DNA of 64,000 nt from an uncultured delta proteobacterium (GTDB lineage Bacteria > Myxococcota > Myxococcia > Myxococcales > Myxococcaceae): positions 128,001-192,000 of the forward strand of contig CAWCKH010000005.1 of the NCBI GenBank assembly GCA_963796055.1. The letters run 5' to 3'. Of the stretch, positions 29,972 through 62,060 are shown piece after piece; the first letter of the stretch is position 1, and each line of letters opens with the position of its first letter. The notes under the pieces were generated by a model, which was given only the letters and a program-made list of their open reading frames with translations, was not told the origin of the DNA and did no database searches. The position numbers and the translations under genes are program-made.

Positions 29972-30053
29972 TGGGCAGACCGAGAGTCGAACTCGGACCC
30001 CTTTCGGGACTGGATCCTAAGTCCAGCGCGTCTACCAGTTTCGCCATCTGCCC
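29972..30053 (-). tRNA. tRNA-Leu(TAG)
   Basis: GGGCAGA/TCTGCCC acceptor stem, anticodon arm CTGGA-CTTAGGA-TCCAG, long variable arm, TTCGA loop; CCA not encoded. Confidence 0.95.
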
Positions 30054-37263: not shown

Positions 37264-37461
37264 ATGGCACCGCCGCCGGACAAGAGCCGCGCCACCGAGC
37301 CCGCGCTGTGGGCGTTCGCCGTGTCGCTGGTGCTGTTGGTGGGCCCGGCGCGGGTGCTCTGGGCCGCCCCGGGGCGCGGCTGGCTCGCCCCGTTCCTGCT
37401 CTGGGGGGTGGTGATCGCCCTCGGGGCCTGGGCCGTCCACCGCCCGAGCGCTCCGCCATGA
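37264..37461 (+). CDS. Small membrane peptide, CbrX-like
   Basis: 65 aa, two hydrophobic stretches, W..PFLLW motif, ATGA overlap with the SLC5 kinase start. Confidence 0.7.
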   Translation: MAPPPDKSRATEPALWAFAVSLVLLVGPARVLWAAPGRGWLAPFLLWGVVIALGAWAVHRPSAPP

Positions 37462-40436
37462 GCCCGTCGATCGGCGTCCTGTTCGGGGTGGCCGTGGCCT
37501 ACCTCGGCCTGCTCTTCGGCGTGGCCTACGCGACGGAGCGCGGGCTGGTGCCGGCGCGGCTGGTCCGGCATCCGCTGACCTACGCGATCTCGCTCGGGGT
37601 GTACGCTACCTCGTGGACGTACTCCGGCAGCGTGGGCTTCGCCCGGAGCCACGGCTACGCCTTCCTCACCATCTACCTCGGGGTGACGCTGGCCTGCCTG
37701 CTGGTTCCGGTGCTCTGGGAGCCGGTCTTGCGCCTGTGCCGCGAGCACCAGCTCACCTCGCTGGCTGACCTCTTCGCCTTCCGCTTCCAGAGTCAGGGCG
37801 CTGGGGTGCTGGTGACGGTGTTCATGCTCGCCGGCAACCTTCCCTACCTGGCGCTGCAGATTCACGCGGTGACCGCGGCGTTCAAGGTGCTCGCCCAGGC
37901 CTCGCCCCCCAGCGGCATCGCGCTGATGTTCTGCGGGCTGGTGACCCTGTTCGCGCTGCTCTTCGGGGCACGGCACGTCACCCCGCGCGAGCGGCACGCC
38001 GGGCTGGGTGTGGCCATCGCCTTCGAGTCGCTGGTGAAGCTGCTGGCGCTGCTCACCGTGGCCCTGGTGGCGGTGACCAGCGTGTTCGGCGGCCTGGGCG
38101 GGCTGTCGCGCTGGCTGGCAGAGCACCCCGACGCGCTCGAGCGGGCCTACGGCCCGGTGCAGAGCGGGCCCTGGGCAACCCTCCTCCTGCTCGCATTCGC
38201 CGCGGCGTTCCTCCTGCCGCGCCAGTTCCACATGGCGTTCACCGAGTCGCTCGACGGGCGGGCGCTCAGGGTGGCGGCCTGGGCCTTCCCGCTCTTCCTG
38301 CTGCTGCTCAATCTCCCGGTCTTGCCGCTGCTCTGGAGCGGGACGGTGCGCTTCCCGGATGGGAACCCGGACAATCACGTGCTCGCGCTCGCCAGGAGCA
38401 GTGGACACCCCCTGGTGGGGGCGCTGGCGTTCGTCGGCGCCATCTCCGCGGCGAGCAGCATGCTCATCGTCGACACGCTGGCCCTGGCGGCGATGTGCCT
38501 CAACCACCTGGTGCTCCCCCGCACCGACCTCGCCCGCTCGGGCGACCTGTACGCGGGGCTGCTCTGGGCACGCCGGGCACTCATCGTCACCGTGCTCGCC
38601 CTCGGCTACGCCTTCAGCCGTCTGCTCGCCACCCGGCAGGGACTGGTGGAGATCGGCCTCATCTCCTTCGTCGCCGTGGTCCAGGTCCTGCCCGGCCTGC
38701 TGGCCCTCCTCTTCTGGCGCGGGGCGACACGCCAGGGATTCCTGGTGGGACTGTCGGCGGGGGTGGGGGTCTGGGCGGTCACGCTCTTCCTGCCCCTGCT
38801 GGCCCACGGGCGGCTCCTCCCGGCGGCGTTCGATCTGGCCTGGGTGTTCGGCATCCGTCCCGGCACCGAGCCGTGGAGCGCGAGCACGTTCTGGTCGCTG
38901 TTCCTCAACACCCTGCTCTTCGGCGGCGTCTCGCTCCTGACCCGCGCCACCGTGCGCGAGGAAGAGGCGGCGGTGGCCTGCACCCGCGGCGCAGCGCCCG
39001 GGCCGTGGATGCTGGAGCCGTCGAGCGCCCAGGAGTTCCAGGCGCGCCTGGCCCCGCTGCTCGGGGAGGACGCCGCCTCGACCGAGCTGACCCAGGCGCT
39101 GGCCGACCTGGACATGGTGCCCGGCGAGCGGCGGCCGGCGCAGCTGGGGAGACTGAGGGACCGCCTGCAGCGCAACCTCTCCGGCCTGATGGGGCCGCTG
39201 GTCGCCCGCTGGGTAGTGGACCGCAGCATCCGCATCAACCACGGCAAGCGGGCCCCGCTGAGCGACCGCATCCGCGCGCTGGAGGAGCAGCTCCGGGCGA
39301 GCCGGGCCCAGCTGCAGGGAGCGCCGGCCGAGCTGGAGGCCTACCGGCGCTACCTCCGGCGCGTGCTGGAGGACCTCCCGCTGGGCGTGTGCGCGCTCGG
39401 ACCCGACCGGGACGTCGTCATCTGGAACCGCGCGCTCGAGCACCTGAGCGGGCTCACCGCCCACGACGCGGTCGGTGCACGGCTCGACGTGCTGCCTGGT
39501 CCGTTGCCCGCCTCGGTCCGCGCCTTCGTCTCCGGCGCGGCGTCGCAGGAGGAGGTGCGGCTGCAGATGAGCGGCGCGAGCGAGCGCGCCTTCTCCCTGT
39601 CTCGAAGTCAGGTGCGCGAGCTGGGGAGCACCACCGGTGAGACCGCCGGGGTGGTGGTGCTGGTGGAGGACCTCACCGAGCGCAAGCTGCTGGCCGCGCA
39701 GGTGGCGCACCAGGACCGGCTGGCCTCGGTGGGTCGGCTCGCGGCCGGCGTGGCGCACGAGATCGGCAACCCGCTCACCGGCATCGCCTGCCTCGCCCAG
39801 AACCTCGTCCGCGAGCTCGGCGAGACCGACCTGCGCGACCGGGTGGGCCTCATCCTCCGCGAGACCCAGCGCATCGACGCCATCGTCCGGGTGCTGCTCG
39901 GCTACAGCCACGCCGGGGCCGCGGACGGGATGCACCAGGCCCCGGTGGATCTCCACCACTGCGTCGCGGAAGCCATCACCCTGGTCCACCTCGCGCGCGA
40001 GGCGAAGGGCGTTCCCTGTGAGAACGAGGTGCCCGCCGGCGTGTACGTCTCGGGGGACCGGCAGCGATTGATCCAGGTGTTCGTCAATCTCGTGTCGAAC
40101 GCGTGCGACGCGAGCCCGTCCGGCACCCCGGTAACGGTCGGTGCGCTCTCGACGACACAGGGCGTCAAGGTCTTCGTTCGCGACCGTGGCACTGGAATGG
40201 ACGAGTCGACCCGCGAACGGATGTTCGAACCTTTTTACACGACGAAGCCGCCGGGGCAGGGTACGGGTCTCGGGCTCCCGCTGGTCGCGGCCATCGTCCG
40301 CGAGCACGGGGGTACGCTCCGGGTGGAGAGCAGACCCGGCGCAGGGACGACGGTCGAGGTGGAGCTGCCGGGGGCGGAGGAGCCGGCGGCTCCGGGGACG
40401 AGGGTGGCCGAGGCCCTCGGGGGAGCACGCGCATGA
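37458..40436 (+). CDS. CbrA-like SLC5/STAC/PAS histidine kinase
   Basis: SLGVYATSWTY, TSLADLFAFRF, IAFESLVKL, LPRQFH; PAS; AAGVAHEIGNP; NtrB-type HATPase (FYTTKPPGQGTGLGL). Confidence 0.88.
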   Translation: MSPSIGVLFGVAVAYLGLLFGVAYATERGLVPARLVRHPLTYAISLGVYATSWTYSGSVGFARSHGYAFLTIYLGVTLACLLVPVLWEPVLRLCREHQLTSLADLFAFRFQSQGAGVLVTVFMLAGNLPYLALQIHAVTAAFKVLAQASPPSGIALMFCGLVTLFALLFGARHVTPRERHAGLGVAIAFESLVKLLALLTVALVAVTSVFGGLGGLSRWLAEHPDALERAYGPVQSGPWATLLLLAFAAAFLLPRQFHMAFTESLDGRALRVAAWAFPLFLLLLNLPVLPLLWSGTVRFPDGNPDNHVLALARSSGHPLVGALAFVGAISAASSMLIVDTLALAAMCLNHLVLPRTDLARSGDLYAGLLWARRALIVTVLALGYAFSRLLATRQGLVEIGLISFVAVVQVLPGLLALLFWRGATRQGFLVGLSAGVGVWAVTLFLPLLAHGRLLPAAFDLAWVFGIRPGTEPWSASTFWSLFLNTLLFGGVSLLTRATVREEEAAVACTRGAAPGPWMLEPSSAQEFQARLAPLLGEDAASTELTQALADLDMVPGERRPAQLGRLRDRLQRNLSGLMGPLVARWVVDRSIRINHGKRAPLSDRIRALEEQLRASRAQLQGAPAELEAYRRYLRRVLEDLPLGVCALGPDRDVVIWNRALEHLSGLTAHDAVGARLDVLPGPLPASVRAFVSGAASQEEVRLQMSGASERAFSLSRSQVRELGSTTGETAGVVVLVEDLTERKLLAAQVAHQDRLASVGRLAAGVAHEIGNPLTGIACLAQNLVRELGETDLRDRVGLILRETQRIDAIVRVLLGYSHAGAADGMHQAPVDLHHCVAEAITLVHLAREAKGVPCENEVPAGVYVSGDRQRLIQVFVNLVSNACDASPSGTPVTVGALSTTQGVKVFVRDRGTGMDESTRERMFEPFYTTKPPGQGTGLGLPLVAAIVREHGGTLRVESRPGAGTTVEVELPGAEEPAAPGTRVAEALGGARA

Positions 40437-41785
40437 GCCGCATCCTGGTGGTCGAGGACGAGGACATCATCCGCTCCGAGCTGGCGCGACTCCTCGCGCG
40501 GACCGGCCACGACGTGGTCGAGGCACGCTCGGTCCCGGAGGCCATGGGCGCGGGGGCCGCCGATGGATTCGACCTGGTCATCGCCGACCTGCGCCTGCCG
40601 GGCGAGCTGGGCACCACGCTCATCGACAGCTGCCGGCCGACGCCGGTGCTGGTGATGACCAGCTACGCCACGGTGCGTGCTGCGGTGGAGGCGATGCAGA
40701 AGGGCGCCGCCGACTTCGTGGCCAAGCCGTTCGACCACGACGAGTTCCTCCTGGTGATGGACCGGGTGCTGCGCCAGTCGCGCCTGCAGCGGCAGAACGC
40801 GGCCCTCAAGCAAGATCTGGAAAGGAACTACGCGGTGCACGGGATGGTGGGCAGCTGCTCGGCGATGCTCGAGGTCTTCGAGCGGGTGCGCAAGGTGGCC
40901 GCCACCGACGCCACGGTGCTCGTGCTCGGCGAGTCGGGCACCGGCAAGGAGCTGGTGGCCCGCGCCGTCCACGACCAGAGCAGCCGCCGCGACGCGCCGA
41001 TCATCGCCGTCAACTGCGCCTCGATCCCCGAGACGCTGATCGAGTCCGAGCTCTTCGGCCACGAGAGGGGCGCCTTCACCGGTGCGCACAAGGCGCATCC
41101 CGGCCTGGTCGAGGCGGCGGACGGCGGCACGCTCTTCCTCGACGAGATCGGCGAGCTGCCCCTGCCCGCCCAGGCCCGGCTGCTCCGGGTGATGCAGGAG
41201 GGCGAGGTCCGCCGGGTGGGCGCCACCGGGAGCCGGCGGGTCAACGTCCGGCTGATGGCCGCCACCCACCGGGACCTCCGGCAGATGTCGTACGACGGCC
41301 AGTTCCGGAACGACCTCTACTTCCGGCTGCGGGTGGTGGAGATCAGCCTCCCGCCGCTGCGGGCGCGCGGCTCGGACGTGCTCGAGCTCGCGGACTTCCT
41401 CCTGGCGAAGCTCTGCCGCCGGCTCAACAAGCCTCCCCTGGAGCTCACCTCGGAGGCGCGGCAGGCGATCTTCGAGCATCCCTGGCCGGGGAACGTGCGC
41501 GAGCTGGAGAACGCCCTCGAGCGCGCGGTCATCCTCTGCGACGGCGGGCAGATCACCCCCGACCTCCTGGCCATCGACGGGCCGCGCCCGGCCTCCGCTC
41601 CCGGAGCCGAGGGGGACGAGGCGAACGGCTCCGGTGCGCTCACCGAGTACTTCCGCCGCTTCGTGCTCGAGCATCAGGGGCACCTCTCCGAGACCGAGAT
41701 CGCCCGCCGGCTGGGCATCAGCCGGAAGGCGCTCTGGGAGAAGCGGGCCCGGCTGGGCATCCCCCGGGGCAAGCTCCCCGCCTGA
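40433..41785 (+). CDS. CbrB-like sigma54-dependent response regulator (NtrC family)
   Basis: Receiver, GESGTGKE, GAFTGA, WPGNVRELEN; C-terminal SETEIARRLGISRKALWE typical of CbrB. Confidence 0.92.
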   Translation: MSRILVVEDEDIIRSELARLLARTGHDVVEARSVPEAMGAGAADGFDLVIADLRLPGELGTTLIDSCRPTPVLVMTSYATVRAAVEAMQKGAADFVAKPFDHDEFLLVMDRVLRQSRLQRQNAALKQDLERNYAVHGMVGSCSAMLEVFERVRKVAATDATVLVLGESGTGKELVARAVHDQSSRRDAPIIAVNCASIPETLIESELFGHERGAFTGAHKAHPGLVEAADGGTLFLDEIGELPLPAQARLLRVMQEGEVRRVGATGSRRVNVRLMAATHRDLRQMSYDGQFRNDLYFRLRVVEISLPPLRARGSDVLELADFLLAKLCRRLNKPPLELTSEARQAIFEHPWPGNVRELENALERAVILCDGGQITPDLLAIDGPRPASAPGAEGDEANGSGALTEYFRRFVLEHQGHLSETEIARRLGISRKALWEKRARLGIPRGKLPA

Positions 41786-41862
41786 CTGAGACCGATCGTT
41801 GATGGGGGGGCCCGCAGGCCAGGGCGACCGGACCCGAGTGAAACCGGGGGCTCCGCGACCCC

Positions 41863-41955
41863 GTTACGTTCGGTAACGCCCTGTTCCGGAACGACACGCG
41901 CGCCCCGGGGGAAGTCCGCAACGGAACGTGAGGCGGCCCCTGGCAGATGGCTTGC
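41863..41955 (+). promoter_or_regulatory. Enhancer plus sigma54 promoter 1 (Acs-like gene)
   Basis: GTTAC-gttcg-GTAAC 41863-41877; TGGCAG-ATGGC-TTGC 41941-41955. Confidence 0.75.
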
Positions 41956-41975
41956 CTGTCGGATTGCTCTTCCCC

Positions 41976-43400
41976 GTGAGCACCCGTCTCGTCGAATACA
42001 GCCTGGAGGAGCGGCTGGAGGCCTGCCGCCGGCTCGCCGCCGAGAGCCTGGACAGCCCGCGGCGCTTCTGGCTCCGCGAGGCCGGACTCCTGGACTGGGT
42101 GCGTTCTCCGGAGGAGGCCTTCGTGGGGGAGATGAAGCACGGGGACGTGAGCTGGTTCTCCGGCGGCCTGCTCAACGCGGCCTGGAATGCGGTGGACCGC
42201 CACGCGGTCGCCTCCCCCGAGCGGACGGCGCTGGTGTGGGCCCGGCCCGAGGGTGACGTGGTGTCCTGGACCTTCCGCGAGCTGCGCCAGGCCTCCTCGC
42301 GGATGGCCCAGGTGCTCCTCTCCCAGGGCGTGCGGTGGGGCGACCGGGTGGTCGGTCACCTGCCCGAGACGCCGACCCTGGCGATGCTCCACCTCGGCTG
42401 CGCCCGCATCGGGGCGGTCCCGGTGGCGGTGCCGGTCCGGTCGGGGGCGGCGCTCGGCCGGGTGCTGCGTGCCACCCGGGGCAGGGTCCTGGTCACGGCC
42501 GACGAGGCGCCCCTGCCCGATGGACGGCTTCCGCTGTGGGAGCGGGTGGAGGACCTCCTCGGCGGCCTGGGGCGGGTGGAATCGGTCCTGGTCGAGCGGC
42601 GCACCGGCACTCCGGTGAGCCTGGTGTACGGGCGGGACCAGGAGCTGGGGACCGCGCTGGCCCGTGCCCGGCCGACCTGCTCGCTTCGCCCCTGCGACGG
42701 CGAGGACCCGCTGCTGCTCGTGCCGGGCCTCGAGGAGGGCCCGCCGGTGGTGCACGGGCTGGCGGGCTTCCTGCTCTGTGCCGCGCTCGGGCTCCGCGAG
42801 GCGGCGGGAGTCGGCCCGGGGGCCCAGGTGCTCTGCACCGAGGGGTTCTCCGGTTCACGCATCGACGTGCTCTGGGGGACGTGGGTGCTCGGCGGCGCCC
42901 TGGTGTTCGACGAGCGGGGAGATGGCGCTCAACGCCCCCGGGCGCTCGGCGTCACCCACCTCTTCGGGCCGCGGGGAGCGCTGGCGGCGGCGGGGCCGGG
43001 CGTGCTCGGGGCCTCGCTGGACGGCTCGGACGCCTCGGTGGCGCCGGTCTGGACGCCCGAGGGCGGGGGGATGCTGGCCGCGCGCTTCGGAGACCTCGGC
43101 GGCACGGCGCTCTTCGGGGTGGACCCCGTCCTGGTGGACACGGTGGGCCGCCGTGCGGGCGGGGCCGGAGCCGAGGGAGAGCTGTGCGTGAAGCGCTCCT
43201 GGCCTGCCCAGCCCCGCAGCCTCGAGCAGGACCACGCCGGGTACGTCGCCCAGCGGCTGGAGCGCTACCCCGGGCTCTACCGGACGTTGGTGCGATGCCG
43301 GCAGCTCCCCGACGGAGCGCTCGCTGCCATCGCGACTCCGCTCGGCGGCATGACCCCCAGCAACGTCTATCCCATCGAAGGCCCCATCGGACGCGCGTGA
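41976..43400 (+). CDS. Acetyl-CoA synthetase-like protein lacking catalytic motifs and C-terminal domain
   Basis: Acs-like WF.GG.LN..NAVDRH, GDRV, CARIGA, VTADE, EDPL, SWP. No YTSGSTG, TETG, TGD or terminal Lys motif. Confidence 0.8.
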   Translation: MSTRLVEYSLEERLEACRRLAAESLDSPRRFWLREAGLLDWVRSPEEAFVGEMKHGDVSWFSGGLLNAAWNAVDRHAVASPERTALVWARPEGDVVSWTFRELRQASSRMAQVLLSQGVRWGDRVVGHLPETPTLAMLHLGCARIGAVPVAVPVRSGAALGRVLRATRGRVLVTADEAPLPDGRLPLWERVEDLLGGLGRVESVLVERRTGTPVSLVYGRDQELGTALARARPTCSLRPCDGEDPLLLVPGLEEGPPVVHGLAGFLLCAALGLREAAGVGPGAQVLCTEGFSGSRIDVLWGTWVLGGALVFDERGDGAQRPRALGVTHLFGPRGALAAAGPGVLGASLDGSDASVAPVWTPEGGGMLAARFGDLGGTALFGVDPVLVDTVGRRAGGAGAEGELCVKRSWPAQPRSLEQDHAGYVAQRLERYPGLYRTLVRCRQLPDGALAAIATPLGGMTPSNVYPIEGPIGRA

Positions 43401-43429
43401 GGCGTGTTTCGCCGGCTCCGGCTTCCGGT

Positions 43430-43537
43430 GTTACCGAGGGCAACAAGGGGCGTTACGTTTTGTAGCAGTGGTGCAGGAGCAACCGCGCTGCGTCACCCAG
43501 AGATTTCAAAGGTGAATCGGACCGGTATGTCTCTTGC
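43430..43537 (+). promoter_or_regulatory. Enhancer plus sigma54 promoter 2 (DUF4212-actP)
   Basis: GTTAC-cgagg-GCAAC 43430-43444; GTTAC-gtttt-GTAGC 43452-43466; CGGTAT-GTCTC-TTGC 43523-43537. Confidence 0.7.
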
Positions 43538-43588
43538 GGTGTGAGTGTGCTCGAGCCGAACCCCCCGCTTGCCCCGGAGAAGGGACCC

Positions 43589-43879
43589 ATGGCCGAGCTC
43601 ACCGAAGCGCAGAGGCACGAGTACTGGAATTACAACATCCGTCTCACCGTCATCCTCCTCATCATCTGGGCCTTCTTCGGGTTCATCCTCGGCGGGGTGC
43701 TCGCCGGCGAGCTGAACAACATCGTCATCGGGGGCTTCCCGCTCGGCTACTACATCGCCGCCCAGGGTTCGCTGGCGGTCTTCGTGATCGAGATCGCCGT
43801 CTACGCCCGGCTGATGAACAAGAAGGACCGCGAGTACGGACTCGAAGACTCCACCACCCCCGGCCCGAGGGTCGCGTGA
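43589..43879 (+). CDS. DUF4212 small subunit of solute:sodium symporter
   Basis: YW..NIRL...LLIIW...GFPLGYYIAAQGS...D.EYG. Confidence 0.9.
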   Translation: MAELTEAQRHEYWNYNIRLTVILLIIWAFFGFILGGVLAGELNNIVIGGFPLGYYIAAQGSLAVFVIEIAVYARLMNKKDREYGLEDSTTPGPRVA

Positions 43880-45807
43880 TGACCACCGCCATCGCCCCCA
43901 CGCGCAAGTGGACGCTGAACAAGATCTTCGGGCTCTACACGGTCGCCTTCCTCGGAATGACGATCCTCATCGGCCTGGCCGAGAAGTTCCTCGGCCTGCC
44001 CAACCGGTGGATCGGCTGGCTCTTCATGGCACTGAGCATGGGGATCTACGTGCTGATCGGGATCCTCACCCGGACCACGGACTCGGACCAGTACTACGTG
44101 GCCGGGCGCGGGGTGCCTGCGATCTACAACGGGATGGCCACCGGGTCGGACTGGATGTCCGCCGCCTCGTTCATCTCCATGGCCGGAGCGCTCTCGGTGC
44201 AGGGCTTCAGCGGGCTCGCCTACGTGATGGGGTGGACCGGGGGGTACGTGCTGCTGGCAGTCTTCCTCGGCCCCTACCTCCGCCAGTTCGGCGCCTACAC
44301 CATTCCCGACTTCCTCGGAGCACGGTACGGCGGAAACACGGCCCGGTTGGTGGGCGTGCTCGCCGCGATTCTCTGCTCCTTCACCTACCTCATCGCCCAG
44401 GTCACCGGGGTCGGCCTGATCGTCAGCCGCTTCCTGGGGCTGCCGTTCAACGTCGGGGTCTTCGCGGGTCTCATCGGAGTGCTCTTCTGCTCGGTGCTGG
44501 GGGGGATGCGTTCGATCACCTGGACCCAGGTGGCTCAGTACATCATCCTCATCATCAGCTACCTGGTTCCGGTGGTGGTGCTGAGCTGGCAGCTCTTCAG
44601 CTTCCCGCTCCCCCAGTTCACCTACGGGCAGCTGCTGCAGCGAAACAGCGCGTCGGCGATCAAGGTGACCAACGACCCGGCCGAAGCGGCCACCCGCGCG
44701 GCCTGGAAGAAGGAAGCCGACGAGGCCGCCGCCAAGCTCAAGCAGCCGGCTCTCTCCGAGGCCGAGAGGGACAAGCTGACCGCCACGCAGAAGACGGGGG
44801 CGGCGCAGGCCAAGCCGCCCGCCGCGCCGGGGGCGACCATCGCCAACTACCTCACCGTGCCCAAGGGCGTGGGGATGTGGAACTTCCTGGCCCTCACCTT
44901 CTGCCTGATGGTGGGCACCGCAGGGCTGCCGCACATCTTGACCCGGTACTACACCACGCCCTCGGTGAGGGAAGCGCGAACCTCGGTGGGCTGGGGCCTG
45001 TTCTTCATCTTCCTCCTCTACTTTACCGCCCCGGCCTACGCCGCATTCGCCCGGTTCGTGGTCTACAGCCGGCTGGTCGGCACGCAGATCTCCGACCTCC
45101 CGCGCTGGGTGGCCTTGTGGAAACCCGCCGGCCTCTTCGACGTGGTGGACAAGATCGGCGACGGGGTGGTGCAGCTGGCGGACTTCGTCATCAAGAGCTC
45201 CGACTTCGTGGTGCTGGCGATGCCGGAGATGGCCGGGCTGCCGTTCGTGATCACCGGCCTGGTGATGGCCGGGGGCCTGGCCGCCGCGCTCTCCACCGCG
45301 GACGGCCTCCTGCTGACCATCGCCAACGCGATCTCCCATGACATGTACTACAAGGTGATCAATCCCAAGGCCCCGCTGATCGTCCGGCTCACGGTGACCA
45401 AGATTCTCCTGGTCGCGACCGCACTCATCGCCGCGGGCGTGGCCACCTTCCGTCTGGCAATCATCGTCGAGCTGGTGGCCTGGGCCTTCAGCCTCGCGGC
45501 GTCGTCCTTCTTCCCGGCACTGGTCATGGGCATCTGGTGGAAGCGGGCGAATCGACCGGGAGCGGTGGCCGGGATGCTGGTCGGCCTCGGCCTCACCCTC
45601 ATCTACATGACCGGCTCGCGCTTCTTCGGAATGTCCTGGTTCGGGACCGCCACCGTGGCCTCGGGGGTGTTCGGGATCCCCCTCGGCTTCCTCACCATCT
45701 ACGTGGTCTCGCTCCTCACAGCCGCGCCGCCCCAGCGGGTCCAGGAACTGGTGGCCGACGTGCGCTATCCCAAGGCCACCATCTCCTCGACGGAGTACGC
45801 CCACTAG
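43879..45807 (+). CDS. actP: Sodium:solute symporter, ActP-like cation/acetate permease
   Basis: YYVAGRGVP, NGMATGSDWMSAASFISMAG, GTAGLPHIL.RYYT, AAALSTADGLLL. Confidence 0.88.
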   Translation: MTTAIAPTRKWTLNKIFGLYTVAFLGMTILIGLAEKFLGLPNRWIGWLFMALSMGIYVLIGILTRTTDSDQYYVAGRGVPAIYNGMATGSDWMSAASFISMAGALSVQGFSGLAYVMGWTGGYVLLAVFLGPYLRQFGAYTIPDFLGARYGGNTARLVGVLAAILCSFTYLIAQVTGVGLIVSRFLGLPFNVGVFAGLIGVLFCSVLGGMRSITWTQVAQYIILIISYLVPVVVLSWQLFSFPLPQFTYGQLLQRNSASAIKVTNDPAEAATRAAWKKEADEAAAKLKQPALSEAERDKLTATQKTGAAQAKPPAAPGATIANYLTVPKGVGMWNFLALTFCLMVGTAGLPHILTRYYTTPSVREARTSVGWGLFFIFLLYFTAPAYAAFARFVVYSRLVGTQISDLPRWVALWKPAGLFDVVDKIGDGVVQLADFVIKSSDFVVLAMPEMAGLPFVITGLVMAGGLAAALSTADGLLLTIANAISHDMYYKVINPKAPLIVRLTVTKILLVATALIAAGVATFRLAIIVELVAWAFSLAASSFFPALVMGIWWKRANRPGAVAGMLVGLGLTLIYMTGSRFFGMSWFGTATVASGVFGIPLGFLTIYVVSLLTAAPPQRVQELVADVRYPKATISSTEYAH

Positions 45808-45907
45808 AGGAGAACCCCGCTGACCTCCCAGGGGCCCGGGGGTCCTCGCCCGACGGCAACGGGCGCGGTCCTCCCCGGGCCTCGCCCGCTGTTGGAGGCG
45901 TTCGCCG

Positions 45908-46195
45908 ATGGCATTGCTCCCCGGCGTGCTGCTCATTCTCCGCACGGTGAGCTTCATCGCCGTCTGCTACGTGGGCCTGTACATCGCCGCGACGGGGTTG
46001 GTCCGGAATCCTCAGAGCAAGGTGCTGGCGTTCTTCGCCCTGGTTGCCGCGCCCATTCTCCGTCCCGCCCGGGCGCTGGCCGGAACTGGGGCGTCCGAGC
46101 GGCGGGTGCGGTGGGTGGCCTTCGCCCTGGTGGTCGGGGTGTGGGCGGTGGCGGTTGCGCTCGACCTCAACTTCGGAGCACGACCCCCCCGCTGA
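45908..46195 (+). CDS. Small membrane protein (YggT-like)
   Basis: TM segments; FF.LV..PILRP.R pattern. Confidence 0.55.
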   Translation: MALLPGVLLILRTVSFIAVCYVGLYIAATGLVRNPQSKVLAFFALVAAPILRPARALAGTGASERRVRWVAFALVVGVWAVAVALDLNFGARPPR

Positions 46196-46229
46196 CCCGC
46201 GGGAGGTCAGGGCTGCGCGCGGCGGAGCC

Positions 46230-46560
46230 CGTCCTGCGCCAGGAGCAGGTGCTCCAAGGCGTCCATCCCCGAGCGCCGTATCGCCAGTGGACGTTGTCGC
46301 TGCCGATGCCAGTGCGCTTCTGTCTGGCCTCTTCGTCCAGGCGCTCTTCGGCTTCCAGCGCCGTACGGCCCGGGCGGCTGGGGTTGCCCGGCCGCTCAGC
46401 GGCGCCGTCGCCTTCGTCCAGCGCTTGGGCTCGGCGCTCCAGCTGACGCCCACTTCCACGTCCCCGTCCCAGAGGCCGTCTTCGAGGGGGTGCACTCCGA
46501 GGAGATGCGCCTGCACCCGCCGCGTCGGGCCATGGAACCCTCCGCTCCCTCGTCTCTCAG
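46230..46560 (+). mobile_element. IS91/ISCR-family transposase remnant (frameshifted)
   Basis: PYRQWTLSLP..VRF, then GAVAFVQRLGSALQLTP, then after a 1-nt shift HFHVPVPEAVF (HUH motif, 46451-46459). Confidence 0.75.
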
Positions 46561-46623
46561 GCGGGTGGACGCGAGGATGCGGGAGGGGACTACGATGCGC
46601 CTCGCGATGGAGGGAGCGGCCAC

Positions 46624-46881
46624 TTGAAGCGGACCAACGTCAGGAACGAACGCCTGGTCGCCCTGGCCTTGTTCGGTCTGCTCCTCTTCAACTACCCACT
46701 CCTCCAGATGTTCAACGCGCCCACGCTGGTCCTGGGGTTCCCGAAGCTCTATCTGTACCTCTTCGTCGCCTGGGCGGTGCTGATCTCGGGAGCCGCCCTG
46801 ATCCTCCGGGTGAGCGAATCCGACGGGGGAGACCTCCCCGGCGGGCGGGGACGGGCGCGACGGCCGCCGTCGCTACGCTGA
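46624..46881 (+). CDS. Small membrane protein preceding the SLC5 sensor kinase
   Basis: LLFNYPLL..F...LGFPKLYLYLFVAWAVLI; RBS GGAG; 9 nt upstream of the kinase. Confidence 0.8.
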   Translation: MKRTNVRNERLVALALFGLLLFNYPLLQMFNAPTLVLGFPKLYLYLFVAWAVLISGAALILRVSESDGGDLPGGRGRARRPPSLR

Positions 46882-46890
46882 GGCGCACAC

Positions 46891-49713: not shown

Positions 49714-49724
49714 ACGGAGCCAGC

Positions 49725-50096
49725 ATGAAGAAGAGAGTCCTGATCGCCGACGACGAGCCGAACATCGTCATGTCACTCCAGTTCCTCATGGAGTTCGAGG
49801 GGTACGAGGTGCGGACCGCGGCCGACGGGGAGACGGCCCTCCAGATCCTCCGCGACTTCCGTCCCGACCTGGTCCTGCTCGATGTGATGATGCCAAAGCG
49901 AAACGGCTACGAGATCTGCCAGGCCGTGCGCGAGACGCCCGCCCTGGCGGGCATCAAGGTGGTGATGCTGACCGCGAAGGGGCGTGACATCGACGCCGAG
50001 AAGGGCCTCGCCCTCGGCGCCGATTCCTACGTCACGAAGCCGTTCGCCACGAAGGAGCTGGTGGCCACGGTGAAGGCGTTGCTCGGCGACGCGTGA
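49725..50096 (+). CDS. Single-domain response regulator
   Basis: ADDEPNI, LLDVMMP, LTAKG, KPF. Confidence 0.92.
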   Translation: MKKRVLIADDEPNIVMSLQFLMEFEGYEVRTAADGETALQILRDFRPDLVLLDVMMPKRNGYEICQAVRETPALAGIKVVMLTAKGRDIDAEKGLALGADSYVTKPFATKELVATVKALLGDA

Positions 50097-52288: not shown

Positions 52289-52308
52289 GTCTCTCGAGCG
52301 ACGGCAGC

Positions 52309-53772: not shown

Positions 53773-53904
53773 CCTCGGGAGCGCGCGGTTGGGCCGAGCA
53801 GGTTTTCAGATTCCTCCCACTCCCGCCATCCGGTGGCAGGGGTTGAACCCATCGGAGGCGCCTCTGGGGTGGCCCCGACCTCGGAATCTCTTGAGGATGG
53901 CATT

Positions 53905-55371: not shown

Positions 55372-55467
55372 CGTTGATCGCGGTCTCGGCCGGCCGAGGT
55401 TCCCAGGTTCCACCCCCCCGCGCCATGCCGATGGAGCAGCGGCCACGCCCCGGCTAACCTCCGGCGG

Positions 55468-56871: not shown

Positions 56872-56972
56872 GTTACCGAAGGTAACGGACTGTTACCGAT
56901 CGGGGCAGACCGAGCCACCTGGTGACGCTCTGCCAACGGATTACGAGGCGTGCAACTTGGCTTGAAAGTTGC
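56872..56972 (+). promoter_or_regulatory. Enhancer plus sigma54 promoter 3 (MFS transporter)
   Basis: TGTTAC-cgaag-GTAAC 56871-56886, second TGTTAC 56891-56896; TGGCTT-GAAAG-TTGC 56958-56972. Confidence 0.78.
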
Positions 56973-57016
56973 GGTCTGCGGAAGTTGCCCACCCGTCTTC
57001 TGAAGGAGGCAGACCG

Positions 57017-58651
57017 ATGGCCGTCGCCGCGTCGTCCCTGCCCATGATCGACAAGAGCGAAGAGCGTCGCGTCATCTTCGCGTCGAGCCTGGGTACCGTC
57101 TTCGAGTGGTACGACTTCTACATCTACGCCGTGCTGGCGCCCTTCTTCGCCAGCGTGTTCTTCCCCCCGGGGAACCAGACGACGGCCCTCCTCAATGCTT
57201 TCGTGAACTACGCGGCAGGCTTCCTGGTCCGCCCGTTCGGGGCGCTGTTCTTCGGCCGGATCGGCGACCTGGTCGGCCGCAAGTACACCTTCCTCGTCAC
57301 CATCACGGTCATGGGTCTGTCCACGGCGCTGGTCGGCTTTCTCCCCACCTACTCCTCGGTCGGCATGCTCGCGCCGCTGCTGCTGCTCCTGCTCCGGCTG
57401 GCGCAGGGCCTGGCGCTGGGCGGTGAGTACGGCGGTGCGGCCACCTACGTGGCCGAGCACGCCCCGGAGAACAAGCGTGGCGGCCACACCGCCTGGATCC
57501 AGACCACCGCCACGGTGGGTCTGCTGCTGGCGCTGGTGGTGATCCTGGCGTGCCGCAGCGGGATGACCACCGCGGACTTCGCGAGCTGGGGCTGGCGCAT
57601 TCCGTTCATCCTCTCGATCATCCTCCTGGTCATCTCCATCTACATCCGGCTCAAGCTGAACGAATCGCCGATGTTCCGGCGGATGAAGGAAGAGGGCAAG
57701 GGAAGCAAGGCCCCGCTGTCCGAGAGCTTCGGGCAGTGGAGCAACCTCAAGATCGTGATCCTCGCCCTCCTCGGCGCGACTGCCGGACAGGGCGTGGTCT
57801 GGTACACCGGCCAGTTCTATGCGCTGTTCTTCCTCCAGACGACGCTGAAGGTCCCGTTCGAGACGGTGTACATGCTCATCGCCATCTCGCTGATCATCGG
57901 CACCCCGTTCTTCCTCGTCTTCGGCCGGCTCTCGGACCGGATCGGCCGCAAGTGGATCATGATGGCCGGGTGCCTGCTCGGCGTGCTCACCTACTTCCCG
58001 CTCTTCAAGGGGCTGACCCACTACGCCAACCCGGCGCTGGAGGCGTTCAACGCCAGCAACAAGATCACGCTGACCGCCACCAACTGCCAGACGCACATCT
58101 TCGCCCTGCCCACCACCAAGTACAGCGAGTGTGATCGCGTCCGGAACATCCTCGGCTCGAGGAGCGTGAACTACGACAACATCGAAGGCGCTCCAGGCTC
58201 CATGCCGGTGGTGCGGATCAACGACAAGGAGATCAGCTCTCCGGCCTCGATGGACGCGGCCGGGATCAAGGCCTTCGAAGGGCAGATCACCGGTGCCCTC
58301 ACTGCCTCAGGCTATCCGGCGAAGTTCGACCCGGCGGGCCTGAACTGGCCGATGGTGCTTCTCATCCTGCTGATCATGGTGATCTACGTCACCATGGTGT
58401 ACGGCCCCATCGCCGCGTTCCTGGTGGAGCTGTTCCCCACCCGGATCCGGTACACGTCGATGTCGCTGCCGTACCACATCGGCAACGGATGGTTCGGCGG
58501 CATGCTCCCTCTCACCGCGTCGGCCCTGGTGGCGGCGAACGGGGACATCTACTTCGGCCTCTGGTACCCGATCATCGTCGCGGCGATGACCTTCGTGATC
58601 GGCTCGCTCATGATCAAGGAGACCAAGGACCACAAGATCGGCGTGGTGTAG
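57017..58651 (+). CDS. MFS transporter, metabolite:H+ symporter (MHS) family
   Basis: SSLGTVFEWYDF, GRIGDLVGRK, GGEYGGA, ELFPTRIRY; RBS AAGGAGG. Confidence 0.92.
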   Translation: MAVAASSLPMIDKSEERRVIFASSLGTVFEWYDFYIYAVLAPFFASVFFPPGNQTTALLNAFVNYAAGFLVRPFGALFFGRIGDLVGRKYTFLVTITVMGLSTALVGFLPTYSSVGMLAPLLLLLLRLAQGLALGGEYGGAATYVAEHAPENKRGGHTAWIQTTATVGLLLALVVILACRSGMTTADFASWGWRIPFILSIILLVISIYIRLKLNESPMFRRMKEEGKGSKAPLSESFGQWSNLKIVILALLGATAGQGVVWYTGQFYALFFLQTTLKVPFETVYMLIAISLIIGTPFFLVFGRLSDRIGRKWIMMAGCLLGVLTYFPLFKGLTHYANPALEAFNASNKITLTATNCQTHIFALPTTKYSECDRVRNILGSRSVNYDNIEGAPGSMPVVRINDKEISSPASMDAAGIKAFEGQITGALTASGYPAKFDPAGLNWPMVLLILLIMVIYVTMVYGPIAAFLVELFPTRIRYTSMSLPYHIGNGWFGGMLPLTASALVAANGDIYFGLWYPIIVAAMTFVIGSLMIKETKDHKIGVV

Positions 58652-58690: not shown

Positions 58691-58744
58691 CCGGCCGGCC
58701 CCGTCCCTCCCCCCCGGGACACGGGTGCCGGCCGGGTTTTTTTT
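58691..58744 (+). terminator. Rho-independent terminator after the MFS gene
   Basis: CCGGCCGGC...GCCGGCCGG stem followed by T8. Confidence 0.75.
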
Positions 58745-60254
58745 AGGGTGCGAACAGGCTGGGGCAATGGCCCGGCTGGGCGGGCGACCCGGAGATGGCC
58801 CCGCCGCGGGGGATGCACTGGCTGGGCGGAAGCGCCTGACCGTGCTCCACCCGGTTCACCAGGAGGTCGAAGGCCCGCTGCGCGTGCGGCTCGATGTACT
58901 CGAGCTGGGGGAAGGTCACCTTGAACGTCTCGATGTGGTTCCCGTTCTGGACCTCGTAGAGGCGGAAGTCCGGGCGGCGGTGGTCGTGCCTTCGCTCGCC
59001 GTGCCCATCGTCGTCACCGTCGTCCCCGTCGGCGAGGGCCGCCTCCACCTTTCGCGCGTAGGCCCGGGCGTGCCGGTCGATGGGCAGCAGGCCGTCCATG
59101 GTGCCGGCGACGGTGATCAGCGGCCGCTGGATCCGTCCGGAAGTGGCGAAGCTCGCGACCTGCGCCCCCACGCCCGACTCCGAGAGACGGGCGTAGTAGT
59201 TGTAGGTGCCGGTGCCCTGGGCGTAGGTGTCGTAGCCGGGGTCGAGCCGCTTCTGCCACTGGCAGTGGGTCACCTCCCAGAACTGGGCCCAGTAGCTGGT
59301 CCAGAGCGAGGCCGTCCCGCTCACGATGTCTGGCGGATACCCGGCGGCGCGGATGTTCTTCGCCGCGGTGCTGTTCGGGTCCAGCCCCGAGGCAACGTAG
59401 TCGGGGTAGTTCAGGATGGCCGGCGGGAGGTCGGTGAGGAGGTTGGGGCCGGCCGGGTCGACCTCCGTCCCCTCCCAGTCCACGCCGCCATCGAAGAGAC
59501 CGGGGAAGAGCTCCACCGCGCGGCGGACCTGGTAGCCGCCGTTGGAGGTACCGACCGCGTAGGTGAAGCGAGGGCCGCGGCCGTAGCGCGCCTCCACGCC
59601 CTGCTGGGCGAGCCGGGCCGCGTCGCCCATGAAGAGCGCCCAGCGGACGAAGGGCTGACCCGGATCGTTGTCGTAGAAGTTCACCCAGAACTGGGAGCCG
59701 GGGCCGGGGTTCAGCCGGCAGGCGAGCTCGTTCGGCGGGGTGGGACTGGAAGGGTTGGTGATGCGGAGGTTCAGCACCCCCTTGTTCTGCGAGGCGTAGG
59801 CGTAGCCCTTCTGGACGACGTAGTCGCTCCAGGCAAAGTCGCCGTTGAACTCGCTCCGGGTGCCGGAGGCCCCGGCGACCACCAGCCGGCCGTTCCAGTC
59901 GTCGGGCAACCGGAGCAGGAAGCGCGCCTGTCCCTGGGGATCGCCGGCGATCCGGCCGTCGATCTGGACGCCCGGCACCGCCTTGAAGATGGGCGTCCGG
60001 TCGGGGGCCGCCGGGGCGATGACGTTGCGGTCGGTGCTGGGGGTGAAGGCGCCCACCGGAAGGCCAGCAAGCGAATTGTCCGGCGGGGTGGTGGCCGGGT
60101 TGGCGGTGGTGAGATCCGGACTCTCGACGCACGTCGCGTCGACCAGCCGATCTCCGAGCCAGTGAAGCGCCTGGTCGCACTTGCTCCCCGCCCCGGCAGC
60201 GAGCGGCGCCAGCAGCGCGATCAGCATCGAGGAACGCAGCGTGCATTCGAGCAT
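58743..60254 (-). CDS. Secreted alpha/beta hydrolase (tannase/feruloyl esterase or 3HB-oligomer hydrolase-like)
   Basis: Signal peptide, LRLPDDWNGRL, GTSNGG nucleophile elbow, GTMDGLLP, GNHIE. Confidence 0.8.
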   Translation of the reverse strand: MLECTLRSSMLIALLAPLAAGAGSKCDQALHWLGDRLVDATCVESPDLTTANPATTPPDNSLAGLPVGAFTPSTDRNVIAPAAPDRTPIFKAVPGVQIDGRIAGDPQGQARFLLRLPDDWNGRLVVAGASGTRSEFNGDFAWSDYVVQKGYAYASQNKGVLNLRITNPSSPTPPNELACRLNPGPGSQFWVNFYDNDPGQPFVRWALFMGDAARLAQQGVEARYGRGPRFTYAVGTSNGGYQVRRAVELFPGLFDGGVDWEGTEVDPAGPNLLTDLPPAILNYPDYVASGLDPNSTAAKNIRAAGYPPDIVSGTASLWTSYWAQFWEVTHCQWQKRLDPGYDTYAQGTGTYNYYARLSESGVGAQVASFATSGRIQRPLITVAGTMDGLLPIDRHARAYARKVEAALADGDDGDDDGHGERRHDHRRPDFRLYEVQNGNHIETFKVTFPQLEYIEPHAQRAFDLLVNRVEHGQALPPSQCIPRGGAISGSPAQPGHCPSLFAP

Positions 60255-60461
60255 CGTGGAGGCCCTCACCCTGGAATTGGAGCGGCGGAGTCTGGGCCGT
60301 CCGGGAGGGTCTCCGGAAGCGACAAGTGGGTCAAAGAAGGGCGGTGAACGGCCGGGCGCGCCCGCGGGCCAGGGGAATTCCCGATGCAAGAACAGGACGG
60401 CGGGCGCCCTCGAACCCGAGGACGCCCGCCGCGCACGGTCCCCAGAGAGTGGAGCCCGGGG

Positions 60462-61649
60462 CTAGAAGCCGACCTGGAACTGCAGGAAGCCCTGCCACTG
60501 CGTGTTGCCGACTTCCCTGTCGGCGTAAATGAACTCGGCCGTGACTTTGTAGGTGTTCTGCAGGACGTACCACGAGAGGCCGCCATGGTAGGCCCGCGTC
60601 CAGCCACCGGCCGCGTTCCCGCTGTAGACGAAGCCGTCCGGAATCGCCCAGTCGAACGCCACGAACGGGCCGATGACCCCGAAGCGCATCGACACCAGCG
60701 CATCGAGCTGCTTCTTGGAGAGGTTGCTGTCGGAGCCTGCCCAGATCCGCCAGGCCGCGATGTCAACGCTGAGCTCGAGGTCGTCGCTGAACGGAATGTC
60801 GGCGAAGACGTCGAAGGCGAAGGTCGTCCAGCTCGTCATGCCGGTCGGTACCGCGGTCCCGCCGGCGGCGCTGGTGTACCCGGTCGTCCGGACTGAGTTG
60901 GTCTGGAAGTCACCCAGCACGCCGATGCTGACGATCGGGGACTTGGCGAAGCAGACCTGGCAGAACGCGTAGCCGTCCTCCTTGCCCGCGATGTTGAAGC
61001 GCAGAGTTCCAGCGAACCGCGGCGCGTCGCCCGGGTTGATTCCCTCCGCGGCGGGGGTGGTCGCGATCGTCTGCTCTCCATTGAAGACGCCGAGGCGGTA
61101 GTAGAGCCGGTCGTCCAGGAGGAGCCCGCGGAGCTCGACGCCCACATCGCGGGTGCCCCGCTGGCTGTTCGGCGCGTAGGCGGTCGGGAAGAGGCTCACG
61201 CTCGCGAACTTCGCACCCGAGGTCAGCGGGTTGTGCAGGTTCGGGAGGAGCATCAGGCCGGCGTCGATGAGCAGCGCCTTGCTGACCTTGTAGGTGGCCA
61301 GCGCATCGAGGAGGTAGAGGTTGTTGTTCCAGGAGACGCCGTCGGCGTTGGCCCCCGTCGGCGGGCCACCCTTCACCACCGCGCCGTAGCTGATGTCGGT
61401 TTCGATGAAGAACCCGATGTTTTCGTTGAACTGGCCACCGAGCAGGATGCGCGCCCGCCGGAGCAGAAAGTCGTTCGACGGGTCGCTCCCCGAGCCGGCC
61501 CCGTCCTGCGTGATGCGGTACTGCGCCTGAATCAGGGCACCGACGTCGACGAAGCCCTTCTCGCTGAACGAGATCTTCGCAGCGTTCGCCGTGCCCGCTG
61601 CCATCAGGCACAGCACTCCGAGACACGACTTCCAGGTTTGTGACCTCAT
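60462..61649 (-). CDS. Outer-membrane porin (OprO/OprP-like)
   Basis: Signal peptide, F.LRRARI, RDVGV..G, GVFNG, C-terminal QFQVGF. Confidence 0.82.
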   Translation of the reverse strand: MRSQTWKSCLGVLCLMAAGTANAAKISFSEKGFVDVGALIQAQYRITQDGAGSGSDPSNDFLLRRARILLGGQFNENIGFFIETDISYGAVVKGGPPTGANADGVSWNNNLYLLDALATYKVSKALLIDAGLMLLPNLHNPLTSGAKFASVSLFPTAYAPNSQRGTRDVGVELRGLLLDDRLYYRLGVFNGEQTIATTPAAEGINPGDAPRFAGTLRFNIAGKEDGYAFCQVCFAKSPIVSIGVLGDFQTNSVRTTGYTSAAGGTAVPTGMTSWTTFAFDVFADIPFSDDLELSVDIAAWRIWAGSDSNLSKKQLDALVSMRFGVIGPFVAFDWAIPDGFVYSGNAAGGWTRAYHGGLSWYVLQNTYKVTAEFIYADREVGNTQWQGFLQFQVGF

Positions 61650-61736
61650 TCGTCCCCTCTCCACGTGAATGCTGCCCCAGGGCACACGATGACCTAGCGC
61701 CAGTCGGCGACCAACTTTTTTTTGGCCCCGCTGTAG

Positions 61737-61840
61737 GCAATCCACGTTCCAGGGGCCTGCCCCTGCGTAGCTCAAGGACTTGCGCGCAGGGGGACCGCTC
61801 CCGGCGTGTGGATGGGTAACGGAGCGTTACCAACGGTAAC
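61737..61840 (-). promoter_or_regulatory. Enhancer plus sigma54 promoter 4 (porin)
   Basis: GTTAC-caacg-GTAAC 61826-61840 plus half-site 61816-61820; minus-strand TGGAAC-GTGGA-TTGC 61751-61737. Confidence 0.72.
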
Positions 61841-61987: not shown

Positions 61988-62060
61988 TGAGAGCGGAGGG
62001 AATCGAACCCACAACCTATGGATTAAGAGTCCATTGCTCTGCCAATTGAGCTACGCTCCC
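61988..62060 (-). tRNA. tRNA-Lys(CTT)
   Basis: GGGAGCG acceptor, AGCTCAATTGGCAGAGC D arm, ATGGA-CTCTTAA-TCCAT, GGTTCGATTCC. Confidence 0.95.

Follow-up and report, generated by a model that had tools for sequence, protein, structure and literature searches.

Among the closest described systems to the locus analysed here are bacterial two-component systems. In Pseudomonas, the kinase CbrA and the sigma54 activator CbrB govern a global regulon, and CrcZ is an RNA that titrates Hfq/Crc. The cbrXA arrangement of P. putida includes a small ORF that overlaps the start of cbrA (PMC13022988, excerpt), and the subsites recognised by CbrB lie 20-25 bp apart, centre to centre (PMC6296734, excerpt). The CrbS/CrbR system (MxtR/ErdR) has an SLC5-STAC kinase that controls acs, the gene for acetyl-CoA synthetase (Acs), together with an acetate transporter; its regulator acts at RpoD promoters and on an active acs (PMC5715377, excerpt). 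In M. xanthus, MXAN_5856 (AcoL) is an active acetate-CoA ligase whose loss improves predation (bioRxiv 10.1101/2023.12.11.571100, excerpt), and MXAN_5852/5853 are named as two-component genes (PMC4603909, excerpt).

Pseudoenzymes, in which the fold is retained without catalysis, are a known kind of protein, and the protein described here, pseudo-Acs, is by its sequence one of them. The new element is that it derives from Acs and is attached to a two-component system; a literature search that covered few subscription papers found no bacterial Acs pseudoenzyme tied to such a system. The gene lies in the window, by which we mean the whole stretch of 64,000 nucleotides that was analysed, among the following features (+ and - denote the strand).

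37264..37461, +: cbrX-like 65-aa hydrophobic ORF, overlapping the cbrA start
37458..40436, +: CbrA orthologue, SLC5-STAC-PAS-HisKA-HATPase by Pfam (E 7e-152 to P. putida CbrA, PDB 10ed)
40433..41785, +: CbrB-like sigma54 activator, REC-AAA+-HTH, directly upstream of pseudo-acs in 17/17 loci
41863..41877, no strand: upstream activating palindrome GTTAC-N5-GTAAC, putatively CbrB-type, in 17/17 related loci
41882..41897, +: second conserved element beside the palindrome, near-invariant by inspection in the 17 related loci
41941..41955, +: predicted sigma54 -24/-12 promoter of pseudo-acs, kept in 17/17 related loci
41976..43400, +: pseudo-acs, N-terminal domain of an AcoL-type acetyl-CoA synthetase with catalytic and ligand motifs lost
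43430..45807, +: DUF4212 gene and VC_2705-family sodium/solute symporter, likely second CbrB target (predicted)
46891-49713: CrbS-like kinase gene
56872..58651, +: MFS transporter with perfect palindrome and sigma54 site, likely third CbrB target (predicted)
58743..61840, -: porin-like and 3-hydroxybutyrate-oligomer-hydrolase-like (3HBOH-like) genes, likely fourth CbrB target (predicted)

By gene order and domain content, the module upstream of pseudo-acs is a real cbrXAB. It shares with Pseudomonas the cbrX-like ORF, CbrA, the sigma54 activator, the GTTAC/GTAAC half-sites and a putatively CbrB-type promoter directly after cbrB. Nine residues of P. putida CbrA are named for the pocket and the Na2 site (PMC13022988, excerpt), and by our reading of the alignment the window's CbrA is identical at 6 of them. 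The two systems also differ. The half-sites in the window are separated by 5 nt, the predicted regulon consists of four carboxylate-uptake promoters whereas that of Pseudomonas CbrB is global, and the counterpart of the CrcZ RNA is a protein gene. An earlier note on this DNA, made from the sequence alone, had placed pseudo-acs in the crcZ position; of that claim only the location fits. CrcZ gave no Rfam match, none of the window's seven AANAANAA sites falls in pseudo-acs or its promoter (41800-43450), and Hfq was not found in the 98.5% complete genome by a search whose control was positive in 5/14 genomes. Since, in addition, the usual occupant of this position is an intact acs (see below), we regard it as an acs slot and not a crcZ slot.

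The earlier note described pseudo-acs as an open frame with altered adenylation motifs and a missing C-terminal domain, and this description is borne out. The frame runs without a stop through 474 aa from a GTG start codon at 41976 to 43400 (+). Pfam matches ACAS_N (E 2e-10) and, of the 384 positions in AMP-binding, just the first 100; AMP-binding_C is not matched. The altered motifs (VPGLEEGPP for the P-loop, WTPEGGG and TLV) are present and align with the Acs motifs that they were said to replace. The protein scores 165 bits against TIGR02188, below the curated cut-off of 725, and its closest PDB sequences are acetyl-CoA synthetases (E 3e-41). It also matches the trypanosomal mitoribosomal protein mL69 (E 2e-6), presumably a non-catalytic acyl-CoA-synthetase-like protein. 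In the ESM Atlas, pseudo-Acs matches a cluster made up of its own family (100 members, Myxococcota), and the other clusters matched are generic AMP-binding ones that carry no functional name; a plasmid search returned one partial match, to an ordinary acs, and a weak search for longer, fused relatives returned none at E < 1e-40.

How far has the enzyme been taken apart? An alignment of 40 family members (the window's protein and 39 of 57 close matches, with fragments, near-duplicates and two frameshifted entries omitted) was scored for motifs A3-A10, whose roles are given in PMC11255334 (excerpt). The Ser/Gly-rich phosphate loop A3, the Thr-Glu of A5, the RxD of A8, and the GHSY and VFxGF patterns occur in 0/40 members, and the C-terminal domain with the A10 lysine is missing in 40/40, the lengths being 469-513 aa. 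TGD and GEP patterns are matched in 2 and 6 members, respectively, and those inspected sit at non-homologous positions. The positions of VFxGF, the R191-equivalent, GHSY, GEP, A3, A5, A7 and A8 have all been replaced; the CoA and acetate positions are mapped as R191 and T311 (Salmonella numbering). Up to the hinge, 118 of the 214 columns that are invariant in 18 intact Acs proteins are lost, mainly near the old active site: retention is lowest within Acs residues 351-450 (1/21 and 5/32), as against 9/11 in residues 51-100. The hinge, which had also been reported lost, is indeed absent from the window's pseudo-Acs, but a W-x-G-[RK] relic survives in 21/40 family members. By its motif content, then, pseudo-Acs is catalytically stripped, an enzyme fold with the catalytic residues missing and under purifying selection.

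The fold itself is predicted to be intact over the N-terminal domain, as comparison with Acs indicates. A model built from an alignment of 94 sequences reaches pLDDT 93, with residues 5-452 folded and the tail disordered, and superposes on Salmonella Acs 1pg3 with Z 44.8 and rmsd 2.4 A over 466 residues; most top rows of the structural comparison have Z 44-48 and rmsd 2.1-2.6 A. A previous model from the 40 family sequences had pLDDT 75 and low-confidence segments, which were resolved with 94 sequences; the larger alignment contained full-length Acs-family proteins, on which the model partly leans. The old active-site region contains conserved charged residues specific to the family (R295, D297, D312, E313 and H328). 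The tail (43358-43400), although predicted to be disordered, is conserved: it is of a GPIGRA type, exact in 23/40 members and with a terminal Ala in 39/40. A similar stretch, GPIARPD, belongs to the C-terminal domain that was lost, and the tail could serve as a degron or a binding peptide.

Lysine makes up 0.4% of the pseudo-Acs family compared with 3.6% of intact AcoL, and this near-absence could reflect GC drift or escape from acetylation. Arginine is enriched while the net charge is not raised (median -3, comparable to intact Acs), a combination that fits GC drift. Given that charge, a basic RNA-binding surface, considered on account of the conserved arginines, was dropped. A split Acs was likewise rejected: all 9 AMP-binding_C matches in the genome lie in frames of at least 540 aa, and none stands alone. 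Elsewhere in the genome, an intact housekeeping acs with all motifs present is found on contig C4 (995 bits), and a second Acs-like gene on contig C3 scores slightly below the TIGR02188 cut-off (712 bits). The earlier observation that no intact acs lies in the window is therefore true of the window and not of the genome.

From a scan of GTDB genomes that gave 317 loci, 80 were kept; 17 of these belong to the pseudo-Acs family, with identities of 82-91% in clade A and 50-53% in clade B; those with taxonomic names are Myxococcaceae, Myxococcota or delta-proteobacterial MAGs. In all of these relatives, down to 50% identity, the gene follows cbrB, and cbrA is visible in 16 of the 17 loci. The pseudo-acs frame is unbroken in 15/17; the other two are frameshifted by single-base indels, and neighbouring genes are broken in both of those assemblies as well. 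With the two frameshifted loci and L043 (no neighbours) excluded, the median dN/dS of pseudo-acs is 0.124 (28 pairs) and 0.170 (21 pairs) in the two clades, while the same comparison gives 0.122 and 0.087 for cbrA and 0.097 and 0.047 for cbrB. Values of 0.10-0.28 are found across all five regions of the gene; the former active-site subdomain has 0.10 in clade A and 0.24 in clade B, where it is the most relaxed folded part. Third codon positions vary at 371 sites, second positions at 71. These data support the view that pseudo-acs is maintained by purifying selection and is not decaying, as the earlier note had proposed. That note had named an intact acs in relatives, together with a dN/dS near 1, as the mark of a pseudogene; the slot in relatives does usually hold an intact acs, but dN/dS is 0.12-0.17. 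The family is narrowly distributed: its profile matched 15 of 401 genomes of the phylum at E < 1e-230, in two genera (9/9 and 6/7), with the next match at 1e-102. Sixteen further regions carry a full-length Acs in 15 cases and none in one, the congener G286, in which the order is cbrA-cbrB-MFS and pseudo-acs and its promoter are cleanly gone. The sister genera G186 and G277 are likewise without pseudo-acs and its promoter.

The claim that pseudo-acs has its own sigma54 promoter and enhancer is likewise supported, given the conservation of the palindrome and the -24/-12 site in all 17 related loci. The perfect palindrome has three copies in the 5.53-Mb genome, where 0.04 are expected; all three are in the window, where they precede pseudo-acs, the MFS transporter gene and the porin-like/3HBOH-like pair, and the half-sites match the CbrB subsites TGTTAC/GTAACA (PMC6296734, excerpt). 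As the genome has 1134 sites that fit the sigma54 pattern, the weight of this one comes from its conservation. In 15/17 loci a further enhancer with its own sigma54 site lies 3' of pseudo-acs, in 14 of these before an MFS gene, and the upstream promoter therefore serves pseudo-acs itself. A scan of 41600-43700 for sigma70 promoters and terminators found nothing. The genome contains rpoN, and two genes with a sigma54 core-binding domain were seen (G000:C4:924454-925038 and C5:237847-238350). With the transcription start placed by sigma54 geometry, the start codon lies 18-20 nt past the -12 element, giving a predicted leader of 7-9 nt (about 9 nt in the window), and no Shine-Dalgarno sequence was found before the GTG. 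Where an intact acs has a promoter to itself (L036, L122 and L135), the leader is longer by inspection, L125 being ambiguous, and a Shine-Dalgarno sequence is evident in L036 and L122. In clade B (L047-L053), the GTG overlaps an out-of-frame ATG-TGA start-stop element that might tune translation.

The remaining promoters of the predicted regulon belong to uptake genes. The DUF4212-symporter unit is preceded by imperfect palindromes and a sigma54 site at 43523-43537, and is found in 1/17 related loci besides the window. The MFS gene lies directly 3' of pseudo-acs in 14/17 related loci; in the window it is displaced by 13.6 kb, and pseudo-acs is still with cbrB. The porin-like promoter has a perfect palindrome at 61826-61840 and a sigma54 site at 61751-61737, the porin match being below the Pfam cut-off and the 3HBOH match partial; the placing of these two genes under a CbrB-type promoter suggests that the module responds to PHB breakdown products besides acetate. 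No CbrB-type site was found at the intact housekeeping acs. The block at 43430-55473, between pseudo-acs and CitMHS/MFS, contains DUF4212, the SSS symporter, the CrbS-like kinase, a receiver, an exonuclease-domain protein and two CBS-DUF294 genes. It occurs at the equivalent place in the window and L039 only, and is therefore likely to be a second acetate module that was inserted recently. Two tRNA genes are present, at 29972-30053 and 61988-62060 (-), the second bordering the porin promoter.

Where did pseudo-acs come from? The cbrA orthologue is widespread in the bacterial family, and among 20 cbrA-anchored regions the slot holds an intact acs in 9, often between a porin and a transporter; the remainder have a dead full-length acs (1), no acs (5), an acs across cbrA (1) or are uninformative (4). 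In two further regions, the acs behind cbrAB has intact motifs as far as the contig extends. The intact slot genes of L121, L126, L124 and L028 encode proteins of 654 aa that have both G367 and W396, which are named for MXAN_5856 (bioRxiv 10.1101/2023.12.11.571100, excerpt), and we infer that the intact slot acs is orthologous to M. xanthus AcoL. A 40-row tree puts the pseudo-Acs family inside the AcoL clade (100/100, 21 rows), far from housekeeping Acs, and a grouping with the latter is rejected (p 6e-6). The stem branch of the family is long, at 1.25-1.88 changes per site. No second match of AcoL strength was seen in the 11 genus-g1 genomes that carry the pseudo-Acs family, which fits replacement in place. 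On tree and synteny, then, pseudo-acs descends from the AcoL clade, the acetate-CoA ligase normally behind cbrXAB in myxobacteria. Pseudo-Acs and AcoL share the slot behind cbrAB as well as the clade; AcoL, however, is a proven active enzyme with all motifs, whereas pseudo-Acs lacks A3, A5, A7, A8, A10 and the C-terminal domain, and has internal deletions and a minimal predicted leader.

Catalytic residues have been lost at the cbrB-linked slot in two further lineages besides the pseudo-Acs family. At L054 (9944-11827), a full-length Acs directly after cbrA-cbrB has A3, A5, A7, A8 and A10 all altered, with a matching promoter type and a 7-nt leader. We note that it sits between cbrB and a DUF4212-SSS unit, with an intact PrpE-like ligase next. 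In the 40-row tree, L054 groups with the pseudo-Acs family and three other dead proteins (100/99), and excluding L054 and those three rows from the clade of the family plus intact proteins is rejected (p 0.007); long-branch attraction can also yield the grouping. The CbrA tree (19/29 rows) has intact-acs lineages separating L054 from the pseudo-Acs family. Perhaps there was one old origin with differential loss, or there may have been two independent origins. No second full-length dead copy appeared among the 15 loci checked (20 genomes of the class of G104). In the other lineage, the cbrB-linked AcoL copies of G323 (L258:5878-7809) and G355 (L259:5352-7283) have the A10 Lys changed to Thr, with the A8 His and one pocket Trp also changed; dN/dS is 0.23, in a comparison of two close genomes (dS 0.05), each copy being accompanied by two intact Acs elsewhere. 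These copies are possibly incipient pseudoenzymes, or may be in early decay. Every genome with a dead copy that was searched has an intact Acs (the window's own, G106, G230, G323, G355 and G104).

Motif-altered Acs proteins are also found away from cbrB. Clustering at 50% gave 148 new representatives. Many of these have altered motifs and several end at the hinge; the majority are singletons with no genomic context, and sequence errors or gene decay may account for some of them. One large family emerged in 64 of 80 metagenome loci kept (L172-L234 and L245; query P0166), which one source name places in Actinomycetota. Its phosphate loop is an Arg-rich motif and the A10 Lys is absent wherever the C-terminus is present; A5, A7 and part of A8 are retained, and the family appears unrelated to pseudo-Acs. 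An IclR gene lies directly upstream in 52/53 loci with enough flank, as against 0/15 intact controls. The IclR-linked gene is often divergent from an operon of ABC-transporter and acyl-CoA-ligase genes, and L173 has a tandem pair. Fusions were seen as well: P0072 (1273 aa, from another lineage than the pseudo-Acs family) joins a motif-altered Acs to an intact synthetase, P0089 to a glycine-cleavage-H-like domain (Pfam), and P0081 to an apparent biotin-carrier domain (by eye).

What, then, might a stripped but maintained Acs do behind cbrB? The reading we prefer, although we give it not quite an even chance, is that pseudo-Acs is a non-catalytic accessory of CbrA/CbrB, which feeds back on the pair and thereby tunes a small regulon for carboxylate uptake. 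The ancestral active Acs would already have had a second, signalling job, and with housekeeping Acs covering the chemistry, catalysis could therefore be dropped. Phosphorylated CbrB would induce pseudo-acs along with the transporter genes, the 7-9 nt leader without a Shine-Dalgarno sequence would keep the protein scarce, and pseudo-Acs, by binding either the kinase CbrA or the activator CbrB, would feed back on the pair and tune the predicted carboxylate-uptake genes. Action through the protein surface is suggested because conservation is found mainly at positions away from the old pockets. CbrA/CbrB is the most economical partner, since pseudo-acs remains beside cbrB even where the transporter has moved away, and the IclR-linked family likewise adjoins a regulator; the location directly after cbrB in 17/17 loci, with a conserved promoter of its own, and the recurrence of catalytic loss at this slot are in favour. 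In the excerpt of PMC5715377, the role of STAC is given as unknown, protein interactions are speculated upon, and kinase activation is independent of transport. Against this role, the link consists of synteny and co-regulation, both common to transporters, and the gene is dispensable, having been lost in G286, with no acs in 5/20 cbrA-anchored slots. The IclR-linked family retains AMP-binding motifs and may work differently. Moreover, losing the activity of AcoL can be favoured in its own right (Jain et al., bioRxiv 10.1101/2023.12.11.571100, excerpt), which would explain inactivation without a signalling role, though not long retention.

Co-regulation could also point to the transporters, and pseudo-Acs could be an accessory subunit of a co-induced carboxylate transporter, the relic of an Acs-transporter complex that gates or stabilises the MFS or SSS permease. 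The MFS gene that usually follows, with its own matching promoter, and the ancestral operon, in which an intact acs precedes an SSS or MFS gene, fit this idea; that the transporter family behind acs varies, that MFS is kept without pseudo-acs in G286, G186 and G277, and that in the window pseudo-acs has remained beside cbrB with the MFS 13.6 kb off make it unlikely. Alternatively, the partner could be an acyl-CoA synthetase that is itself active, either housekeeping Acs or the paralogue on C3, on which pseudo-Acs would act in a regulatory or dominant-negative way, lowering acetyl-CoA formation when CbrB is on. The P0072 fusion, the intact Acs in each dead-copy genome searched and the benefit of reduced AcoL activity to M. 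xanthus predation (Jain et al., excerpt) can be read in this way, but housekeeping Acs is of a distant clade and lacks a CbrB-type site, most bacterial Acs proteins are monomeric or dimeric (PMC11255334, excerpt), P0072 is from another lineage, and the weak search for longer fused relatives was negative; we think this less likely still.

The earlier note favoured a ligand sensor, a scaffold or a regulatory decoy. Of these, a scaffold, or more broadly a regulatory partner, agrees with the reading preferred above. Sensing of CoA or acetate through the old pockets is unlikely, and that suggestion is weakened, in that the CoA- and acetate-site motifs have gone along with the catalytic ones. A sensor or sink for a small molecule (carboxylate, CoA or nucleotide) in a remodelled pocket could make use of the predicted intact fold and of the five conserved charged residues; this too we consider improbable, when every mapped motif position has been replaced, retention is lowest in residues 351-450, and the arginine gain with lysine loss leaves the net charge unraised, as expected of GC drift. 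A decoy for an acetyltransferase is also unlikely: AcuA engages the C-terminal lysine (PMC11255334, excerpt), and the domain that carries this lysine is the one deleted here. A new, non-adenylating enzymatic activity would accord with the strong purifying selection on the former active-site subdomain in clade A (0.10), but in clade B no other folded part is as relaxed as that subdomain, the C-terminal domain is missing with none stand-alone in the genome, and no new catalytic motif is recognisable, all of which makes such an activity very unlikely. Least probable of all is that pseudo-acs is a decaying pseudogene or that its functional product is a CrcZ-like RNA: the long stem branch, the frameshifts in 2/17 loci and the lack of a Shine-Dalgarno sequence are outweighed by the dN/dS values and codon-position pattern, by the broken neighbours in both frameshifted assemblies, and by the absence of an Rfam match, Hfq and a AANAANAA site.

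How would a CbrA/CbrB partnership relate to the stripped Acs proteins found elsewhere? A wider and more speculative proposal, which we hold to be possible but on balance improbable, is that Acs is a moonlighting co-sensor whose N-terminal domain binds to SLC5-STAC kinases or to the activators paired with them, and in another phylum to IclR regulators, and that catalysis is repeatedly shed to leave a dedicated signalling subunit. What CbrA and CrbS sense, and what binds STAC, is an open question in the excerpts of PMC5715377 and PMC13022988; a dead Acs that is retained beside cbrAB and nowhere else amounts to a natural separation-of-function mutant for contact between Acs and the kinase or activator. 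In M. xanthus, the active AcoL occupies the orthologous slot, and the improvement of predation on its loss is unexplained. The motifs are dead in many proteins that carry the annotation acetyl-CoA synthetase, among them the large IclR-coupled family, and this matters for the metabolic annotation of soil genomes. If pseudo-Acs does tune CbrA/CbrB, an everyday enzyme gains an unrecognised signalling job; if the co-sensor proposal is also true, it would supply the missing STAC/PAS partner and define a widespread class of Acs-derived pseudoenzyme regulators.
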